Shown here piece by piece: positions 1,616 to 9,229 of a stretch of 10,371 nucleotides of DNA. A model generated the notes under the pieces. That model saw nothing but the letters and a program-made list of their open reading frames with translations, searched no databases and was not told the DNA's origin. The stretch lies in IMG/VR virus record IMGVR_UViG_2565956719_000006; one strand, written 5' to 3'. Within the stretch, counting starts at the first letter, position 1; every line of letters begins with the position of its first letter. A program made the position numbers and the translations under genes. The DNA is from a virus. Its lineage: Duplodnaviria; Heunggongvirae; Uroviricota; Caudoviricetes.

Positions 1616-2233
1616 TTGATCAGTACGGAACCAATGTCATTAGTAGCACAAATAGGACAGTATTCGTGGTGTATCACAGTAGTTAGCGTCTGCTTAGTTT
1701 TCATTGGATGGCGAGTTGCGTACAATAATTCTGTAAAACTGGCGACACGTTCTGAATCGAAATCAATTATTGATGCTATTTCAAAGTTAGTTATTGAAAT
1801 TTCTGATATTTCTTCTAACTATTGGCTCAGTCAGACAACTCAACCTAAAATTAGAGCATCAAAGCATCGATTGTTAAGGTTGCAAAAGGATAGAACAAAG
1901 GCTTCTGTTTCATACTTGTTAACTATCTTGGCTAAAGCTCAACAAGTTTCCAAACTGATTTGCATTTTGGAAAGCAGAGGACTGTATATACCTGACGAGG
2001 TGTTCTCATCTGTACTAGAGAAAGCAACTCTGGATTGTGAGGTCGCTCACAAGCTTTCAGATGCCGATCGCCCGGTTAAAGCACAAGAAGTAATTGATGC
2101 TTGTATGGGAGTTATCGAAGCGTTACATACTTCTTTTCAAAGGTACCACCCTCCCAAAAAGGATCGTACCTTTATGCAAAGGTTAAAAATTTGGTTTCAA
2201 ACAGTAGACGATTGGCATAATGACTTAAAATAA
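1616..2233 (+). CDS. Membrane-anchored hypothetical protein (one N-terminal TM helix plus charged soluble domain), third gene of the operon
   Basis: 205-aa ORF starting at TTG 1616 with AAGAGG 6 nt upstream (alternative ATG at 1634 has no SD). Hydrophobic segment YSWCITVVSVCLVFIGW near the N-terminus. Starts 11 bp after the upstream stop. Its 3' end overlaps the integrase 3' end by 9 bp. Confidence 0.65.
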   Translation: MISTEPMSLVAQIGQYSWCITVVSVCLVFIGWRVAYNNSVKLATRSESKSIIDAISKLVIEISDISSNYWLSQTTQPKIRASKHRLLRLQKDRTKASVSYLLTILAKAQQVSKLICILESRGLYIPDEVFSSVLEKATLDCEVAHKLSDADRPVKAQEVIDACMGVIEALHTSFQRYHPPKKDRTFMQRLKIWFQTVDDWHNDLK

Positions 2234-3397
2234 AGCCTTTTTATCCTTGATACTTGCCCTCCCATCATACTCTTTCAAGTATTGTCCATAGTGCCTGAAT
2301 AACATTTCAGGCCCTTTATGGCCCATTTGAGCCGCAAGCCAAAACAGGTTTGCTCCCCGGCTGATATGGCTGGTGGCGAATGTATGCCTGGTTTGATATG
2401 GGTTTCTGTAACGAATACCTGCTTTTCGCAATGTTGGCACCCATGCTTTTTTCCTAATTGCATCAGCACTTGCCCAGGGTTTATTGGTCTTTGGATCTTC
2501 AAAGACAGTAGCATCCTTCATGAATGTAAATGGCTTCTGGTTTATCAACGCCAACATTGCTTCTTCAGTCAGTTCAACTTTACGGGTACCGGCTTTTGTC
2601 TTTGTTCCTTTGATAACTCCGACAACACTTGCGCTCTGAACATGGGCTGTTTTTCCAACAAAGTCGATATCATGCCATCGTAGGGCACATAATTCAGAAC
2701 TACGCAGGCCTGTATGTATGGCGAACCGGAACAGATTTTCCCATTGTTTGTTTCCGGCTGCTGCTAGTAATGCATCAACTTCTGCTGGTGATAGCGGATC
2801 AACCACATAGCTGCTTTCTGCTTCTGACTTATCACTTTGGTAGCGCGAAGCTGTTACTAACGATACGGGGTTAATTTGAAGTACCCCATCGGTCACGGCT
2901 TCATCAAGTGCTGACCGTAGGAAAGATAACTGGTTGCGAATGGTTTTTAAGGTTGTTTTCTGGCTTTGAATCCACGCTTTCAGGGTTGCTGGTGTTAATT
3001 CACTTGCAGGGCAAATGTGAAGTGAGGCTAACGCACTACGGCATTTTTTATAGCCACCAATCGTAGAGGGTGAAAGTTTTCTTGTTTCGCAGATTTCAAG
3101 ATATTCGTCCAGGTACATCTTTACCGTTTTGCTTGCAGCAGCATTACCAAAAATTTTCAAACGAGCAGAACGGGGAAAATATTCTGCATAAATGAATGTT
3201 CCCCTTTCGATCTTATTATGGATTTCGCCGAGTGTACGCTCGGCGTATTTAATGTTCTTTGGTGTTACTTCCAGATTGGAAAGCGGCTCACGACATCTAA
3301 CTCCTTTGTAGGTGAAAGTTATATTGATCGTTTCTCCCTGGTGGTGTTTCCTGATTGTTACGCCGCGCGGTAGTTTGAGCAGTTTTGTCTGGCCCAT
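2225..3397 (-). CDS. int: Tyrosine-type site-specific integrase with N-terminal arm-binding (DUF3596-like) domain
   Basis: 390-aa ORF with GAGG SD. N-terminus LPRGVTIRK...ITFTYKGVRCRE is arm-domain-like. Catalytic box residues are present (TGLRSSEL; HxxR in YQTRHTFATS; LAAQMGHKGPEMLFRHYGQY with the terminal Tyr). Confidence 0.95.
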   Translation of the reverse strand: MGQTKLLKLPRGVTIRKHHQGETINITFTYKGVRCREPLSNLEVTPKNIKYAERTLGEIHNKIERGTFIYAEYFPRSARLKIFGNAAASKTVKMYLDEYLEICETRKLSPSTIGGYKKCRSALASLHICPASELTPATLKAWIQSQKTTLKTIRNQLSFLRSALDEAVTDGVLQINPVSLVTASRYQSDKSEAESSYVVDPLSPAEVDALLAAAGNKQWENLFRFAIHTGLRSSELCALRWHDIDFVGKTAHVQSASVVGVIKGTKTKAGTRKVELTEEAMLALINQKPFTFMKDATVFEDPKTNKPWASADAIRKKAWVPTLRKAGIRYRNPYQTRHTFATSHISRGANLFWLAAQMGHKGPEMLFRHYGQYLKEYDGRASIKDKKALF

Positions 3398-3576
3398 TTT
3401 GCAACCTCACTAAGATCAATCCACCTCTCCTTAACGCCTTCAACCTTTAAAACCTGAACACCTTCACGCCAAACACCGCGCTGTACACGTTTGTTTATTG
3501 CTTCAGGAGTTTCGCCAGTTTCTTTGCAATAAGTTGAGATAGGAACACAATCGAGGTTCAGCATACGTTTCTCCAT
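3358..3576 (-). CDS. xis: Excisionase-like small DNA-binding protein (DUF1233/Xis-like)
   Basis: 72 aa from ATG 3576 (MEKRMLNLDCVPISTYCKETGETPEAINKRVQRGVWREGV...). Overlaps the integrase start by 40 bp, the usual xis-int arrangement. An upstream ATG at 3603 would give 81 aa. Confidence 0.7.
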   Translation of the reverse strand: MEKRMLNLDCVPISTYCKETGETPEAINKRVQRGVWREGVQVLKVEGVKERWIDLSEVAKWARQNCSNYRAA

Positions 3577-3605
3577 TATCCCGTCTGCACACGGGAGCAA
3601 CATTA

Positions 3606-4472
3606 TTAACGAATAGTGTCGTTACTTTGAAGTACAGCAAATGCCATTAATACTTCTAAAGTATATCTTCTATAAAATTTAACAAAACCAACATAGAAAA
3701 CATAGACGAAGAAAAAGCTAAGCATTATTGAAAGTAAACTATAAAGATAATCACTATGAGTACATAATCGATAAATAAAGGTTGGAACTGATACCCAAAA
3801 TGAAATTATAAAGATTAAACATATGTTTCTGCAAAAACCATATAATGCAACATAGTTTTGAATTTTTGTTTGATGTTGTTTTGAAAACTCATAAACATAA
3901 TGATATGCCAATCTGAAGAGATCATCATCAAGTCCGTTTTTATCTTGTAATAATTGGCGATTTGTTATGAACTTTTTCTCATAACCTTCTTTGATCATTA
4001 ACCATGTTGTATTAGCTAAATGAAATGGTAGAGATTGAGAATAACATAGTTTTTGTGTTATAAAATCCCATAGTATTATTGGACATAATACGCATTTGAT
4101 TATGCGATTCTTTATTTTTGTTTTTTTATCAGCGCTTCTCTCATCGCATGATGGGCTACAAATGCTTTCTGAGGTATCTATCAATTTTTTAAATAGATAT
4201 TTGGAAGGATATCCTAATTCTTTATTCATGTATTTTTCGATAAAAAATGCTGACGTGATAGAAATAAAATGTCCAGCTATATAAGATATAATAACTATTG
4301 AAGCGTAGTTCAAAATGCCAAAGATTTGACTTTGACCTCTGAGCAATTCACTTAAGTCAATAACAATATCTAGATCGAATGTCAAACCACAGAAATACAT
4401 TAATAGGATAAAAAAACCACCTGGTATTAAATATCCAAGAAAGTCATAGAATGAGAATGGATTTTGATTCAT
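3606..4472 (-). CDS. Polytopic inner-membrane protein of unknown function (AT-rich moron)
   Basis: 288 aa from ATG 4472, preceded by GGAGAG SD (the ORF-track start at 4496 is 8 codons upstream). About 5-6 hydrophobic helices (e.g. FLGYLIPGGFFILLMYFCGLTF, ICLIFIISFWVSVPTFIY, LYSLLSIMLSFFFVYVFYVGFV). Visibly AT-rich compared with neighbours, with an AT-rich 108-bp upstream spacer. Confidence 0.7.
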   Translation of the reverse strand: MNQNPFSFYDFLGYLIPGGFFILLMYFCGLTFDLDIVIDLSELLRGQSQIFGILNYASIVIISYIAGHFISITSAFFIEKYMNKELGYPSKYLFKKLIDTSESICSPSCDERSADKKTKIKNRIIKCVLCPIILWDFITQKLCYSQSLPFHLANTTWLMIKEGYEKKFITNRQLLQDKNGLDDDLFRLAYHYVYEFSKQHQTKIQNYVALYGFCRNICLIFIISFWVSVPTFIYRLCTHSDYLYSLLSIMLSFFFVYVFYVGFVKFYRRYTLEVLMAFAVLQSNDTIR

Positions 4473-4580
4473 TGTTGCTCTCCAATAATTTTTCAATTTG
4501 TAATATAACCTATATCTATATGTTAATAAATTACTTATATGTTCTTTTATGGCAGAGTTTGAATTCGTACGTGCTGATTT

Positions 4581-5105
4581 TTACGACTCAGTTAACTCTT
4601 TAAAGCGTTCCATAAACATCCCATAGGTATGGCCTGGCGACAGTGGAATAACTTTGAACATCTCTGTTGCCGGGATACCTTCCAGTACGGGCCAGAAAGA
4701 GCCATCATCAAGCCCGAGATCGCGGCGTTCGGTTGCCAGCATGATGAGATCGGCATATTTCACGGGCGTACTCATAACCGGGGGTAACCCGTATTTCTCA
4801 CGGATTACGGCGTCTATTTTTTCTTCCATCCGTTTATAGTCAGGAAGAAGGCGTTTCAGTGGCGCCGGGATGTCCTGGCAATACGCTTCTGTTGCATCAT
4901 GCATTAACGCTTCAAAAGCAAATTCCTGCGGTACCAGTTGGCTGCAAAGCACCGCATGTTGGGCGACGCTGTAGAAATGTGAAAGATGTCCTGCAAAGCG
5001 ACAGATATTTGAAAGAGAAACCGCGATATCGTTAATAACGATGTCGTCTTTATTTATCCTGTCATAATAAAAATGCTTCCCGGAAAAAGTTTTAATAAAT
5101 GACAT
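4581..5105 (-). CDS. yfdR: HD-domain phosphohydrolase (YfdR-like, 5'-deoxynucleotidase family)
   Basis: HD motif context HLSHF...ALMHDATEAY. ATG 5105 has a GGAG SD; in-frame GTG starts at 5117 and 5132 are alternatives. Symbol is from my recollection of the E. coli K-12 CPS-53 yfdP-yfdQ-yfdR cluster (120/274/178 aa), which matches the sizes and order here. Confidence 0.8.
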   Translation of the reverse strand: MSFIKTFSGKHFYYDRINKDDIVINDIAVSLSNICRFAGHLSHFYSVAQHAVLCSQLVPQEFAFEALMHDATEAYCQDIPAPLKRLLPDYKRMEEKIDAVIREKYGLPPVMSTPVKYADLIMLATERRDLGLDDGSFWPVLEGIPATEMFKVIPLSPGHTYGMFMERFKELTES

Positions 5106-5199
5106 TTTGTTCTCCACGTATATGCGCTGCACCGCGCTGAATTCTGGTAAAAGAAAGCCCTCACCATCCGGCGATTATTGAGTCAATTACGTTTCCATA

Positions 5200-5221
5200 A
5201 ATGCCCCCGCAGGGGCATTTG
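5200..5221. other. Intercistronic GC-rich hairpin (9-bp perfect stem, 4-nt loop) between the yfdQ-like and yfdR-like genes
   Basis: AAATGCCCC-CGCA-GGGGCATTT. No U-tract on either strand, so it is not a canonical intrinsic terminator. Confidence 0.5.
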
Positions 5222-5232
5222 CAGTAATGAAA

Positions 5233-6057
5233 TCAGGCGGTAAAAGTACCAATAAAGGTTTCTACTTTGCTGTCCTTGAATTTCTCAACAAGCAGATCAC
5301 GAAATTCGTTAGCCATTTCTTCCTGCACTGCTTCCAGCTGAATAATGCGCAGAACCAGTACAGGACGATCGCCAGTGATAATGCTGAGGCGTAATTTAAA
5401 CGGACGTTCTTTCAGGCCTTCAAACGGAACGCATTTAAATTCAAATGCCACTGGCATAATATCTTTGGTCTTCGCTTCGACAGACTCCATCAGGGAGCGT
5501 TTGCCGCTGAAGTCATTGTCTTCAAAATCAGCGGTCTGGTTTGCTTCAATCGTGATTTTACGGACTGCCGCAGCCGCTTTTGTTGCCTGAATAGCATCAC
5601 CATTAGCATCAAAGCCCACAAGGTAGTCGGCCCAGTCTTCAATCCATTCTGCCAGTGACTTCTGGGAGTTACGCTCGCCGTTAACAGACAACAGGGCAGA
5701 GAACGGTGCTGTCTTTTTCAGTTTGAGAGTGGCGGTGTTATCTGCGTGACCAGGCTCATCAATAGTACCCAGGTTAAGCACACTGACGGCACGCATATTA
5801 TCGGCATCGATAAAGCAGCGGGTGCCTTCATCCGCAAGATCTTTAGAATAACGGGTAAAGTCATCGATGCTGGCAGTGGAAAGCGCACCACGGAAACGGA
5901 AGCGATTTAAATTAAATTTTTCCAGATCATGAATGCGGAAATTCTCAGGCAATACCACAGCATCGGCACCAATCTTACTGATAATTTCATTAACACCCTG
6001 AGCAGAAATAAGGGCATGGATTTGATTAATTGCGGTTGCGTCTAAGTTCTGAGACAT
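5233..6057 (-). CDS. yfdQ: YfdQ-like prophage protein (DUF2303 family)
   Basis: 274-aa ORF with GAGGA SD 7 nt upstream of ATG 6057. Length and neighbourhood match my recollection of K-12 YfdQ. Confidence 0.8.
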
Positions 6058-6122
6058 AATAAGTCCTCACTATATAAAGATATTCAGTGATGAGATAAAT
6101 AATCAGTTAATTAAGAACGATA

Positions 6123-6485
6123 TTAATGACCTGCTGCGCGGAGTTTTCCGTCAGGTTCACCGGCAAGAGTCAGTAATTGTCCCTGGTCTTCCTGCAGAAT
6201 AGTCAGGCGACCACCGCGATTGACATACATCGGCGTTTCGGTGGTGTCTTCTTCGGAAATTTTCCCGCGGTTAGTCGGACGAACATATGAGAGTTTGTGT
6301 TTTATTTTCACACGGTTCTCATCAAACGGTTCGATTTCCAGGTTGAGCGAGACCTTACCTTTGGTTTTCGTGTTCATCACACCGGAAGCGACTTCACTGA
6401 GAACTGCGCCGATTTTGGTTTCAAATACGCCGCCGTCCAGCTCCCCGATAAATTCCTGCACGTTGGTACTGCGTTCGCTAGCCAT
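6123..6485 (-). CDS. yfdP: YfdP-like small prophage protein
   Basis: 120 aa from ATG 6485 with a strong GAGGAG SD. The ORF-track 226-aa form adds an Arg/Cys-rich, non-protein-like extension running into GC-rich non-coding DNA. Confidence 0.7.
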   Translation of the reverse strand: MASERSTNVQEFIGELDGGVFETKIGAVLSEVASGVMNTKTKGKVSLNLEIEPFDENRVKIKHKLSYVRPTNRGKISEEDTTETPMYVNRGGRLTILQEDQGQLLTLAGEPDGKLRAAGH

Positions 6486-6533
6486 TTTGCTGCTCCTCAT
6501 CATATCGACCCTGCAAGGTCGGTTGGTTTCTCC

Positions 6534-6622
6534 ACAAAACAGAGAAGAACACCTGCGGTGGCAGCCGCCCGGGTGGATTGGGTTATGAGCCCGTCGTCCG
6601 GTGATGCTCTTCTCTGTTTTGT
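6534..6622 (-). promoter_or_regulatory. Candidate structured leader RNA element: 15-bp perfect inverted repeat closing a 59-nt GC-rich loop, with boxA-like motif at its edge
   Basis: 6534..6548 (ACAAAACAGAGAAGA) is the exact reverse complement of 6608..6622. The enclosed segment contains two further short hairpins (GCGGTGGCAGCCGC; CGGGT...GCCCG). Minus strand at 6621..6633 reads CCGCTCTTTTTAC. It lies about 50 nt upstream of the yfdP-like SD. Confidence 0.3.
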
Positions 6623-6953
6623 AAAAAGAGCGGTACCAGCCGGAAGCAAGGGTACAAGCTGGTACCGCCAGGACTACACACAGCATAAAGTTGTGGTGCC
6701 GGGTGCCTCCCGGTGCCTGGCGAAGGTTGCACACCAGGCGGGTGGGTATCCACAGAAGGTCGACTGTCAGCCTCAACCTTAACCCGCGTGCGCTGAGCCG
6801 CATTCACCACAACGCTAAGGATTCTCTCTGGTTGAAAATACTTAGCTGTTATGTGCCTGCTTTTAGCCACATCAGGCGAGGTGGGCCTGGTTATTCCCCA
6901 ACAACAAGGATTCGGCTAATCTGGATGACTCTGTTCTTAGAGGGGATAATTAA

Positions 6954-7466
6954 ATGGGAGCGATTTATGTTAAACGTTTGATTCTGTCGGTAGCACTGAT
7001 AATACCGATAGCATCCAATGCTTCTGATGCTTTGAACCAGCCGAGCAGTAGTCTAAATGATGGTGTTGAGACTTTTTTTATTTCCTGCTTTGATATGCCT
7101 CAGGAAACAACTACTGATATGGACGCTTGTCAGAGAGTTCAGTTAGCTCAGGTTAGTTGGGTTAAGAATAAGTATTCGGTGGCCGCCCTGAATCGTTTGA
7201 AACAAGACAACAAGGATGATCCACAGCGTCTGCAGGAATTAACTGCTTCTTTTAACGCGGAAAGTGAAGCTTGGACAGAATTAATTGAGAAAGCGTCAAA
7301 GTCCGTCCAGGTTGATTATGCAGGAGGAACTATAGCTGGCACTGCAGTTGCATCACGTCAAATTGGTCTTCTGGAATTACAATCCCACGATATCTGGGAG
7401 CACTGGCTACGATTCGAGGACTCAACTCCTCCTCTTTTGCCAGAACCAAAGTTCAAATCTGAGTAA
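6954..7466 (+). CDS. Secreted/periplasmic protein with Sec signal peptide (possibly DUF1311/LprI-like), moron
   Basis: 170-aa ORF with SD GAGGGG. N-terminus KRLILSVALIIPIASNA|SDA is a typical signal peptide. Two Cys in the mature N-terminal part. Own intrinsic terminator downstream. Confidence 0.75.
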   Translation: MGAIYVKRLILSVALIIPIASNASDALNQPSSSLNDGVETFFISCFDMPQETTTDMDACQRVQLAQVSWVKNKYSVAALNRLKQDNKDDPQRLQELTASFNAESEAWTELIEKASKSVQVDYAGGTIAGTAVASRQIGLLELQSHDIWEHWLRFEDSTPPLLPEPKFKSE

Positions 7467-7493
7467 TAAGTCATCCAGATTGTTAAAGAGCGA

Positions 7494-7517
7494 AGCGTCC
7501 TATAGGGCGCTTTTTTG
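7494..7517 (+). terminator. Rho-independent terminator of the secreted-protein gene
   Basis: AGCGTCC-TATA-GGGCGCT stem (7 bp, one G-U) followed by TTTTTT, about 28 nt after the stop. Confidence 0.6.
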
Positions 7518-7594
7518 TTGCTAACGAATCATCCTGGACTTCATATGCCCCAGGCGGCTACTTCGTGGGCGTCCTGCCTGTTTGTTGTTTCTCT

Positions 7595-7630
7595 TGGGTA
7601 CATTATGTGTCTCAAAGGTACATTGTCAAG
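7595..7630 (-). promoter_or_regulatory. Putative leftward (PL-like) promoter with GTAC-core operator-like repeats
   Basis: Minus strand has TTGACA, an 18-nt spacer and TAATGT. Two direct GGTACATT repeats (7597..7604, 7617..7624) share the GTAC core of the OR palindromes. Confidence 0.3.
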
Positions 7631-7656
7631 TATAAAAAAACCTGCCGAAGCAGGTT
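7631..7656 (-). terminator. Rho-independent terminator downstream of cI
   Basis: On the minus strand, a CCTGC-TTCG-GCAGG hairpin (extendable by two A-U pairs) is followed by a U-run, 13 nt after the cI stop. Confidence 0.6.
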
Positions 7657-7668
7657 CATAAACATTGA

Positions 7669-8343
7669 TTAGGCTTTGATTTTGTATCTTCTTGGTTTTC
7701 CTGAGAAAATCACAGTACCAATTATAGAGCAATTACCGTTGATCTTAATGTAAGGCTCAGGCCAGTTTGGGTTTAACGCTTTGAGATAACGCTGTGTCCC
7801 ATCTTCTATCAACCTTTTGAAGGTGGTTTCACCTGTATCGTGCATCAATGCAATAACGTCGTCACCGTGGCAGGCAGGTACTTCAGGATCGACAAAAATC
7901 ATGTCTCCCGGGCGGTACTCATCAATCATTGAATCACCTATCACCCGCAAGATATAAGTCATTTCCCCACAGGGTACAGGGCAGGGATACGTTTCTGCTG
8001 TGCTCAAATCAACCTCAGAATATCCAACTTCTTTCCATGCTCCGGCCTGTACCCATGATATGACAGGGACTAATGTGATTTGTTTATTAGTGATTGAAAC
8101 ATCAGGTTTTTTTGTGATGTTCGTTGTCTGGTGTTCTTGATCGAGCCATCCGACAGGCAGGTCGAAACATTTTTCGATGTGTCGTGCCATGCTGTCACCG
8201 ATATTTTTAGTAGCACCATCTCCCATAAACCTGCTGGTCTGGGTTGGCTCGCGATCAATCATAGTGGCAAAGGAAGAATTCCCGCCAACACCATCTCTCA
8301 GTTTTCTGGCGTTAGACCGCCGGATGTCATGGATTGTTTTCAT
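7669..8343 (-). CDS. CI-like phage repressor (N-terminal HTH, C-terminal S24 LexA-like autopeptidase)
   Basis: 224 aa. C-terminal domain has catalytic Ser in VIGDSM and Lys in TFKRL, the LexA/CI S24 signature. Divergent from the cro-like gene. Confidence 0.9.
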   Translation of the reverse strand: MKTIHDIRRSNARKLRDGVGGNSSFATMIDREPTQTSRFMGDGATKNIGDSMARHIEKCFDLPVGWLDQEHQTTNITKKPDVSITNKQITLVPVISWVQAGAWKEVGYSEVDLSTAETYPCPVPCGEMTYILRVIGDSMIDEYRPGDMIFVDPEVPACHGDDVIALMHDTGETTFKRLIEDGTQRYLKALNPNWPEPYIKINGNCSIIGTVIFSGKPRRYKIKA

Positions 8344-8434
8344 AACGAAATTAAAACCCTTGTACCGTTAAGGTACAAGTATCTTGAAGGTTCATTTCAA
8401 TCATGTAATATGTACACCGTAGGTACACATTGTA
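8344..8434. promoter_or_regulatory. Immunity switch: OR-like operators with divergent PR and PRM promoters
   Basis: Palindrome CTTGTACC-GTTAA-GGTACAAG at 8359..8379 and imperfect TGTACACCGTAGGTACACA at 8411..8429. PR candidate is TTGAAG (8384..8389), 16 nt, TAATAT (8406..8411). PRM candidate on minus is TTGTAC, 17 nt, TTTAAT, ending 6 nt before the cI ATG, which implies a leaderless cI mRNA as in lambda. Confidence 0.6.
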
Positions 8435-8634
8435 TGAAAGCGTATTGGGACTCTTTAACCAAAGAACAGCAGGGCGAGTTGGCCGGAAAAGTTGGCTCAA
8501 CACCTGGCTACTTACGGCTGGTTTTCAATGGCTATAAAAAAGCCAGTTTTGTGCTGGCTAAAAAACTTGAGCAATGCACGTCAGGTGCAATTACGAAATC
8601 TGACTTAAGACCGGATATCTATCCGAAAGATTAG
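8435..8634 (+). CDS. Cro/YdaS-like small HTH regulator
   Basis: 66 aa from ATG 8435 (MKAYWDSLTKEQQGELAGKVGSTPGYLRLVFNGYKK...ITKSDLRPDIYPKD), position and pattern of a YdaS/Cro-family protein. The longer ORF-track form (8131..8634) would overlap cI and the operators. Confidence 0.75.
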
Positions 8635-8665
8635 CAGAACACTTTCAATTTTTAACCACAGAACG

Positions 8666-9229
8666 ATGAGGCTAACCGTGGGTAAGTATCACTGGAAAAT
8701 AGAAAAACAGCCTGAGTGGTACGTGAAAGCTGTCAGAAAAACGATCGCGGCGTTGCCGGGTGGTTACGCTGAAGCGGCTGACTGGCTCGATGTAACAGAA
8801 AACGCTTTATTCAACCGCCTTCGTGCAGATGGCGATCAGATTTTCCCGCTGGGATGGGCAATGGTTTTACAGCGTGCTGGTGGCACTCACTTCATTGCTG
8901 ATGCTGTGGCGCAGTCTGCAAATGGCGTCTTTGTGTCTCTTCCTGACGTCGAGGATGTGGACAACGCCGATATCAACCAACGCCTGCTGGAGGTCATTGA
9001 ACAGATCGGCAGTTATTCAAAACAGATTCGTTCAGCAATTGAAGACGGTGTAGTGGAACCGCATGAGAAGACAGCAATTAACGATGAGCTGTACCTCTCA
9101 ATTTCGAAGCTGCAGGAGCATGCAGCACTGGTCTACAAAATCTTTTGCGTTTCAGAAAGTAGTGACGCCCGCGAGTGTGCAGCTCCGGGCGCCGTGGCGT
9201 GTCGTGACTGTGGAGAAACTAACGCATGA
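8666..9229 (+). CDS. CII/YdaT-like phage regulatory protein (putative)
   Basis: 187-aa ORF immediately downstream of the cro-like gene. Alternative GTG start at 8678 has a better SD (GAGG). Family assignment is by position and general resemblance only. Confidence 0.6.

Follow-up and report, generated by a model that had tools for sequence, protein, structure and literature searches.

In the ribosomal RNA (rrn) operons of Escherichia coli, a boxA element is followed by a processing stem that brackets 16S rRNA, and in the nut sites of lambda, which work with the phage protein N, boxA takes the form CGCTCTTA. RNAs of the HK022 put type act in cis on RNA polymerase (beta' zinc-binding domain) and, to our knowledge, are documented for HK022 and a few relatives only. 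The putL of HK022, numbered here against Hwang 2022, is a structured antiterminator RNA at the start of the transcript from the leftward early promoter, PL (PMC9378689). A lone boxA protects the long untranslated RNA of CRISPR arrays from Rho (2020, PMC7665894), and the gamma-proteobacterial boxA consensus, GYTCTTTAANA, has been published together with Nus-factor targets (Baniulyte 2017, PMC5725501). Here we analyze a boxA on the minus strand of a 10,371-nucleotide (nt) stretch of phage DNA (IMG/VR record IMGVR_UViG_2565956719_000006; the whole stretch is referred to as the window), for which the best explanation is that it represents the immunity region of a temperate prophage of the SfV/e14 type that lacks N.

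Along the minus strand follow, in this order, the repressor gene cI, a 200-nt non-coding stretch, a convergent cargo open reading frame (ORF) on the plus strand and a leftward yfdP-like operon. The non-coding stretch holds a PL-like promoter, a conserved structured leader RNA and the boxA, which on balance probably serves as a functional Nus-loading, anti-Rho site. Although boxA-mediated Nus antitermination is well known, its use in the early operon of an N-less prophage, fused to an opposite-strand terminator at the edge of a cassette, is new so far as we have checked. The leader and the boxA module are two very common cis elements, and they bear on the expression of distal early genes in N-less lambdoid and SfV/e14/ST64B-type phages.

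The boxA and the adjoining hairpin

The analysis centers on two adjacent features:

7480..7492, minus strand: boxA of the rrn type, CGCTCTTTAACAA, read from the sequence
7492..7520, plus strand: intrinsic terminator of the cargo gene (stem 7492-7513 plus a T-run), from a terminator scan

The initial annotation had read CGCTCTTTAACAA at 7480..7492, and the sequence bears it out. It had also called the element an rrn/lambdoid boxA; the rrn half of that label holds (an rrn 12-mer, with a hairpin upstream) and the lambda half, which would entail a boxB downstream and N, does not. The 12-mer GCTCTTTAACAA is identical to the boxA of the E. coli K-12 rrnB leader, which we read directly, and GCTCTTTAACA (7491..7481, minus strand) is the sole match to the consensus GYTCTTTAANA in the window. 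The element starts ~103 nt after a predicted transcription start (~7595), on the same strand as an 11/12 promoter. In 2 x 10,371 bases, ~3e-4 exact matches to a 13-mer would be expected by calculation; shuffled sequences give 0.09 expected consensus matches, with at least one in 17 of 200 shuffles. It is the comparative data that make the boxA convincing.

For that comparison one genome per species was taken, giving 65 genuine copies of the leader described below, and boxA was sought within 400 nt of each. The consensus occurs downstream on the same strand in 11 of these 65 leader-anchored, species-level loci and in none of the 65 in each control (upstream on the same strand, upstream on the reverse strand and downstream on the reverse strand). 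Among the 11, the 11-mer varies solely at the N of the consensus. Eight share the hairpin-boxA module; the other three (L241, L309 and L331) carry boxA without the hairpin, in unrelated flanks, so that boxA is conserved in at least four sequence contexts while its surroundings vary. One locus with a mutated boxA, GCTCTTTAGCAA, was found among the ~48 module-bearing of 80 cI-anchored loci.

The presence of boxA goes along with what lies downstream. The first ORF is convergent in 8 of 10 loci with boxA versus 11 of 51 without (Fisher p = 8e-4, uncorrected for relatedness and based on crude ORF calls), and the first co-directional ORF lies at a median distance of 818 nt when boxA is present versus 225 nt when it is absent. 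In boxA-less relatives (e14, SfV and an L173-type class), the leader is directly followed by a translated co-directional ORF.

In PL-sense RNA the cargo terminator is read as a weakened hairpin that ends 3 nt 5' of boxA. Its energy in the window is -12.3 kcal/mol in the cargo sense versus -7.2 kcal/mol in the PL sense; across 25 hairpin variants the means are -10.85 and -7.02 kcal/mol, respectively, and the cargo sense is the stronger in 23. Because of G.U pairs in the stem, the hairpin is much weaker on the PL-sense RNA, an asymmetry by which it should hinder PL transcription little. The loops and the spacers around the module vary between loci. Since no strong minus-strand intrinsic terminators were found at 2000-7100, Rho would be the main expected obstacle to the PL transcript.

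Three further observations concern the boxA and its surroundings. In L241 and L309, ~40-150 nt past the leader, the hairpin-less boxA is followed by a conserved CCCCAAC..AAAUG.GNUGUAUCAC segment accompanied by a covarying hairpin (CACUGG..CCAGUG versus CACCG..CGGUG); this arrangement may be a fuller nut-like site in Xenorhabdus-type prophages. A local 6-bp stem of AAUCUG (7481..7476) with CAGAUU (7461..7456), with a 14-nt loop, starts from the last two boxA bases and is shared by the cargo classes of the window and PhiR29_1 types, while the SfIV type lacks it. Finally, a boxA-like string, GACTCTTTAACCA, lies at 8449-8461 on the plus strand, 15 nt into the cro (ymfT) ORF on the transcript of the rightward early promoter, PR; it has three mismatches to the 13-mer and is probably due to chance.

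The promoter and the leader RNA

Upstream of boxA, the minus strand carries the following:

7602..7629, minus strand: PL-like sigma-70 promoter TTGACA-16-CATAAT (-35 at 7629..7624, -10 at 7607..7602; 11/12 match)
7586..7622: two operator-like 17-bp sites (7622..7606 and 7602..7586) with TGTACC/GGTACA half-sites
7520..7589, minus strand: conserved structured leader RNA of 70 nt, from alignment and covariation
7587..7581 with 7528..7522, minus strand: leader helix P1 (alignment columns 3-9 with 62-68)
7578..7576 with 7570..7568, minus strand: leader helix P1a (columns 12-14 with 20-22)
7554..7550 with 7537..7533, minus strand: leader helix P2 (columns 36-40 with 53-57)

The initial annotation had proposed a TTGACA-18-TAATGT promoter, flanked by GGTACATT repeats, just beyond the cI terminator. 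There is a promoter directly after that terminator (stem 7657..7638), but it is better parsed as TTGACA-16-CATAAT, the best promoter match within 6500-8800, with a predicted start at ~7595. The repeats are real as well, but they are sited inside the promoter (plus strand 7597-7604 and 7617-7624), over the -10/+1 and the -35/spacer, and each is the strong half of one of the 17-bp operator-like sites. Their half-site GGTACA is common to two 17-bp TGTAC-N7-GTACA palindromes between cI and cro (8361-8377 and 8411-8427), and TGTACC occurs 12 times in the window versus 3.3 expected. Judged by this half-site similarity, the GGTACATT repeats would be operator half-sites bound by cI. A sigma-70 promoter past the cI terminator, overlapped by sites related to the right operator, is the layout expected for a repressor-controlled lambdoid PL, and that is very probably what this promoter is.

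The same promoter is kept in e14, SfV, SfIV, PhiR29_1 and UTI89, and the annotation of phage Ayreon marks the equivalent site 'promoter'. In K-12, e14 has the same cI, promoter and leader as the window, and ymfJ is the first gene downstream of the promoter; the SOS response induces ymfJ and intE of e14 at a late stage, which is what control by a CI-like repressor would predict (PMC11002266). At position 7609 the window has C (GACACA), whereas UTI89, e14, SfV, SfIV, PhiR29_1 and all IMG/VR relatives have T (GATACA). This C weakens the right half of the operator-like site 7622..7606 in the promoter spacer, and because it is private to the window the exact 33-nt promoter pattern had no match in IMG/VR.

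Between this promoter and boxA, a few nt past the predicted PL start, begins the leader RNA. It had been missed when an RNA-based antitermination was first suggested for this locus, and it is now the likelier candidate for an RNA-based component. Relatives were aligned first, and IMG/VR and one genome per species were then scanned for the leader; about half of the genome matches were chance hits in high-GC coding regions and were filtered out. The 88 distinct leader sequences align gap-free, with 89.8% of the cells paired versus at most 43% when the partners are slid. Changes on both sides of a pair were seen in 272 cells versus 78.5 in shuffles (none of 500 shuffles reached 272), and the covariation score is 0.53 versus 0.13. 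Both P1 and P2 covary clearly. The forms of P1 include GCGAA/UUCGC, AACGAA/UUCGUU, AUCGAA/UUCGAU, GCAAA/UUUGC, CCACC/GGUGG and GUCAUC/GAUGAC, P2 occurs in 27 forms, and RNAalifold recovers P1a and P2 independently. The single-stranded segments are nearly invariant: CACGAAGUAGCC, the P2 loop (GGCAUAUGAA in the window, GGCRUAYGAA across copies) and AUGA.

With a covariance model the window leader scores 91 bits (E 2e-29); the model finds one leader per phage, always in the left operon, and no second copy on the PR side. Rfam gave no match at gathering thresholds over the whole window and none on the minus strand over 7520-7589 even at E <= 10; a weak Phe_leader match (7400-7680, E <= 10) corresponds to the plus-strand terminator and was set aside. 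A literature search for the leader core sequence found no paper containing it. The leader is almost certainly a real conserved structured element and a well-supported candidate for a new, apparently uncatalogued RNA family. Its likeliest role would be in elongation or antitermination, acting in cis.

At least 12 unrelated promoter/operator sequences, that is, different immunity types, precede the leader, and its conservation mostly starts 10-15 nt after the predicted -10 (two outliers, 6 and 21 nt). The same leader at a near-fixed distance behind so many promoters argues for transcription starting here across the family. In ZF40, YeP1, ST64B and mEp237 the distance from the repressor gene to the leader is ~100 nt. 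Beyond E. coli, phages of Klebsiella, Salmonella, Citrobacter, Enterobacter, Yersinia, Serratia, Pantoea, Xenorhabdus, Photorhabdus and Pectobacterium have the leader too. Among 5426 complete E. coli genomes, the leader is found in 1814, and leader and boxA module together in 1077 (about a fifth).

The structure was taken from covariation, the single-sequence minimum free energy fold of the 137-nt leader-to-boxA RNA being uninformative (z = -0.32). An inner pairing of CGAA (of CACGAAG) with UUCG was dropped in favor of the 5'-end P1, which covaries, and CsrA sites (AGGA in the P1a loop and CAGGAUGA) were considered but discarded, the second GGA being part of the P2 stem, which covaries. Wobble pairs (24 G.U cells over 12 pairs versus 64 A.C cells, the latter concentrated at terminal positions and in one lineage) are only modestly informative as to the strand, and the leader was assigned to the PL sense mainly because the promoter adjoins it.

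Some relatives differ around the leader. In mEp237 (L212 1570-1650), L214, L215, L221, L256 and others, a conserved AACGCGCAG...AAACGUUCCGC..CCNGGCGAYAAGGG segment follows the CCACC and GUCAUC subtypes of P1 and precedes a conserved ORF starting MIDFARKP; it may be a second RNA domain. Ayreon (L002 2400-3060) shares cI and the PL promoter with the window, but in place of the conserved RNA it has a different leader, and it lacks boxA; an Ayreon-type leader precedes the conserved one in some IMG/VR loci (such as L014 and L093). On the plus strand, 7565-7581 forms another hairpin that resembles a terminator and has a tail rich in T; it is the reverse complement of the P1a region and could be a back-up stop for rightward transcription before PL and cI.

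The cargo platform and the prophage

Features on either side of the leader and boxA are as follows:

6954..7466, plus strand: convergent cargo ('moron') ORF of 170 amino acids (aa), from the ORF list; 'hypothetical' in UTI89
7458..7481: PL-proximal inverted-repeat arm, 24 nt, 79% complementary to 6918-6941, overlapping the cargo stop codon
6892..6941: distal inverted-repeat arm (6918-6941, just upstream of the cargo start codon) and constant distal junction ATTCCCCAACAACAAGGATTCGGCT
7669..8343, minus strand: cI-type repressor gene, ymfK/cohE-like, 224 aa, from the ORF list (Pfam Peptidase_S24, an S24 peptidase, E 1.5e-26)
7631..7657, minus strand: intrinsic terminator of the cI transcript, 8-bp stem (7657..7638) plus a T-run, from the terminator scan
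3606..6803, minus strand: early-left operon, from the ORF list, Pfam and the UTI89 annotation
6123-6803, minus strand: yfdP-like ORF of the early-left operon
5233-6057, minus strand: yfdQ/DUF2303 of the early-left operon
4581-5132, minus strand: yfdR-like HD hydrolase of the early-left operon
Within the early-left operon, minus strand: ORF of 296 aa
2225-3397, beyond the early-left operon: xis and int

The cargo ORF has at most a sub-threshold Pfam match to LprI, and other phages carry unrelated genes in the same slot. PhiR29_1 and SfIV, with different cargo, show the same inverted-repeat bracketing. The repeats are imperfect and 20-26 bp long (also at L004 3119-3144/3673-3698 and L005 3119-3138/3795-3814), and their arms change together between cassettes (ATGACT/AGTCAT in the window versus ATATCC/GGATAT in PhiR29_1). 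Among the module-bearing loci there are 41 distinct downstream sequences, or cargo classes. The first substantial ORF is convergent in 37 of the 41, usually stopping 9-25 nt from the module, and the distal boundary in 37 of 41 is the reverse complement of AATCTGGATATCCCCAACAAC followed by the constant AACCGAATCCTTGTTGTTGGGGAAT; a repeat equivalent to that of the window occurs in 37 of the 41 classes. In SfV, e14 and Ayreon the hairpin, boxA, repeats and distal junction are all absent together. The inverted repeat starts after boxA, and the distal arm has no boxA complement; homology between phages with different cargo ends right after AATCTGG. All parts from the hairpin to the constant end, with boxA, the two repeat arms and the cargo in between, so form one exchangeable platform, which marks a hotspot with dozens of different accessory genes in pathogenic E. 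coli. The initial annotation had not recognized that boxA belongs to such a portable unit of terminator, boxA and inverted repeats bracketing a convergent cargo. As RNA, the repeats could pair into a stem from which the cargo is looped out; equally, they could be the ends of a DNA-level recombination or cassette exchange.

The window is 99.8-99.9% identical to a prophage of extraintestinal pathogenic E. coli (such as UTI89, NU14, APEC O18 and IHE3034), and the immunity region of this prophage is of the SfV/SfIV/e14 type. The equivalent repressor gene is labelled cI or ymfK in the SfV, SfIV and UTI89 annotation, and the cI terminator is also annotated as a terminator in SfV and Ayreon. The yfdP-like ORF is a single intact ORF of 226 aa in the window, like SfIV orf34; for its UTI89 counterpart (L003 6824-7511), PGAP calls yfdP (121 aa) and a frameshifted pseudogene.

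Proposed mechanism, alternatives and described systems

Taking these data together, we lean towards Nus loading at boxA, with Rho-resistant transit of the PL transcript over the cargo antisense, as the best explanation. Upon inactivation of cI, RNA polymerase would start at the operator-covered PL (7629..7602, start ~7595) and run leftwards, and the first 70 nt of the transcript would fold into the conserved leader. The polymerase would then pass the hairpin, a good terminator for the opposite strand only, and transcribe boxA (7492..7480), where NusB/NusE (S10), together with NusA, NusG and SuhB, would assemble into an elongation complex resistant to Rho, as happens on rRNA operons and CRISPR arrays. 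An untranslated RNA of ~790 nt, counted from the PL start up to the first start codon in the same direction, would cross the cargo antisense, and the protected transcript would reach yfdP, yfdQ, yfdR, xis and int. The platform would act as a portable 'insulating' unit that keeps cargo transcription out of PL and cI and lets PL transcription pass the cargo. In its outline, antitermination-competent leftward early transcription through the antisense of the moron towards the yfdP-like operon, this was already the proposal of the initial annotation, and it appears to fit the comparative evidence best. The remark made there that no obvious N gene is present also stands, since the next gene is convergent and N, cII and cIII are all absent from SfII, SfIV and SfV according to a published analysis (PMC3851460).

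Should boxA work in this way, antitermination by Nus factors would reach prophage operons that have no N, and the presence of convergent 'moron' genes inside an early operon without polarity would be explained: the cargo would be terminated one way and the operon Rho-proofed the other way. We put forward only tentatively a wider reading, in which the 70-nt leader would represent a new kind of RNA that brings about processive antitermination or anti-pausing in cis and without a protein, working with a portable rrn-like unit of opposite-strand terminator, boxA and long-range stem that permits convergent cargo inside the early-left operon. It would have a put-like function without kinship to put and be used by a large fraction of N-less enterobacterial prophages.

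Several points weigh against Nus-mediated protection at boxA. The window statistic by itself is only suggestive. With eight of the 11 boxA loci sharing one module, only about four contexts are independent, and this relatedness also bears on the Fisher test. The 120 IMG/VR loci retrieved by a pattern that included boxA are silent on its conservation. Some boxA-less relatives (the 11 of 51, and also Ayreon) still appear with convergent ORFs or long untranslated stretches, so boxA is not obligatory. The commonest cargo class, the SfIV type, has a plausible co-directional ORF of 68 aa with a good ribosome-binding site 45 nt after boxA. Lastly, boxA is U-rich and could also serve as tail to a weak reverse terminator.

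The alternative that survives best, although we consider it unlikely, is that boxA has no Nus function and is kept as the constant end of the cassette, either as a recombination junction beside the repeat or as the flank of the cargo terminator, serving as an A-tract upstream in the cargo sense and a U-tract in the PL sense. The same hairpin adjoins boxA in eight of the 11 species-level cases, homology breaks after AATCTGG while the inverted repeats and the constant distal junction delimit the cassette, and pattern-based sampling cannot reveal selection on boxA itself. A passenger, however, would hardly account for the copies without the hairpin in the unrelated flanks of L241, L309 and L331, for loops and spacers that vary while the 11-mer varies at the consensus N alone, or for an orientation that is always PL-sense, with zero matches in the three controls. 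Identity to the rrnB boxA, hairpin-to-boxA spacing included, speaks against it too, as do a repeat that begins only after boxA and a distal arm that lacks its complement.

Rather improbable is the idea that boxA is half of a protein-dependent nut-like site, with an unrecognized phage antiterminator (an N analogue or an early Q-like protein) binding the leader or a nearby hairpin and using boxA and the Nus factors in the manner of lambda N. The position is that of nutL, the invariant single-stranded segments of the leader suit specific recognition, boxA is followed by the conserved CCCCAAC segment and a covarying hairpin in the Xenorhabdus-type loci and L309, and a Q-type 'antitermination protein' is encoded far to the right in the prophage (UTI89 annotation). 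On the other hand, no N-like gene is found here or in SfII, SfIV and SfV, and the genes after the leader are entirely different among SfV-like phages, mEp237, ZF40 and YeP1, so that no common phage partner is evident. Moreover, 54 of the 65 leaders have no boxA, and no boxB-like hairpin, which the initial annotation had suggested looking for in homologs, is conserved 3' of boxA across cargo classes; the sequences 3' of boxA differ by cargo class and share the repeat arm alone.

We give similarly little weight to the possibility that the promoter mainly makes a non-coding RNA of ~85-115 nt ending at the hairpin and U-rich boxA, with the early-left genes transcribed from elsewhere and the leader acting in trans or being a by-product. 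A strong promoter followed by a structured conserved RNA and a hairpin with UUCGCUCUUU does resemble a small-RNA gene, but the hairpin is weak in the PL sense (-7.2 kcal/mol, with a C.A mismatch), the U-tract is interrupted, and the leader of e14, SfV and many other loci leads directly into an ORF, no terminator intervening. Nor did any alternative promoter for the yfdP operon score well, the best leftward candidate being 6973..6946 (9/12). Very improbable, finally, is a negative boxA, at which bound Nus factors would repress an ORF downstream or favor termination by Rho and so dampen early-left expression: such repression is documented at suhB (PMC5725501) and the SfIV-type class has its small ORF 45 nt after boxA, but the window and 37 of 41 classes have no co-directional start codon near boxA, and the link with long untranslated stretches fits protection, not repression.

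Of the described systems, the suhB 5' untranslated region likewise has a perfect GYTCTTTAANA match in a non-rRNA transcript (PMC5725501), but its boxA is near the start codon and repressive, whereas the phage boxA has no start codon nearby. Lambda nutL with N has the same position as our element, a short way downstream of PL and past the cI terminator, and shares with it a boxA and a presumed role in distal early-left expression. It differs in that the locus has neither an N gene nor a boxB with a GNRA-like loop 3' of boxA, and in that boxA here has the rrn form GCTCTTTA rather than the lambda form.

The putL RNAs of HK022 and HK639 resemble the leader in being structured RNAs of ~70 nt at the PL transcript start of N-less lambdoid phages, at or near +1, with no dedicated protein, and HK639 likewise has a single copy, in the left operon only. 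Yet P1 of the leader closes around P1a and P2, whereas put consists of two adjacent stem-loops. Homology to HK022 putL and putR and to HK639 putL was rejected by local alignment, blastn and covariance model alike: Smith-Waterman comparison of leader and put gave a chance-level score alone, blastn with the leader at a distant setting listed neither HK022 nor HK639, and the leader covariance model had no hit in the HK022 put region, with E <= 10 allowed, and in the HK639 stretch gave only noise (<=10.7 bits), with nothing at the annotated putL. The short strings that leader and put have in common (CGAAC..GGC and CAGGAUGA) appear coincidental.

CRISPR arrays share with the locus a lone boxA before a long untranslated RNA that would otherwise be a target of Rho, arisen repeatedly and with no dedicated phage protein; in the phage, the RNA is instead the cargo antisense within a prophage operon, where boxA adjoins, as one unit, a terminator of the opposite strand. 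The E. coli rrn leader (boxB, boxA and boxC, with NusB/NusE/NusA/NusG/SuhB/S4) differs in that the phage locus is a repressor-governed early operon, its upstream hairpin is a reverse-complemented cargo terminator and not a conserved boxB, no boxC was identified at it, and Nus binding there is proposed by analogy. The two nevertheless share the boxA 12-mer GCTCTTTAACAA and a long untranslated transcript, with a hairpin that ends 2 nt before boxA in rrnB and 3 nt before it here. In both, boxA is followed by a long-range inverted repeat around an untranslated insert, which in the phage recalls the 16S processing stem, and in the wider reading put forward above the Nus complex might chaperone the bracketing stem, as proposed for 16S rRNA, perhaps for excision of the cargo antisense by RNase III.

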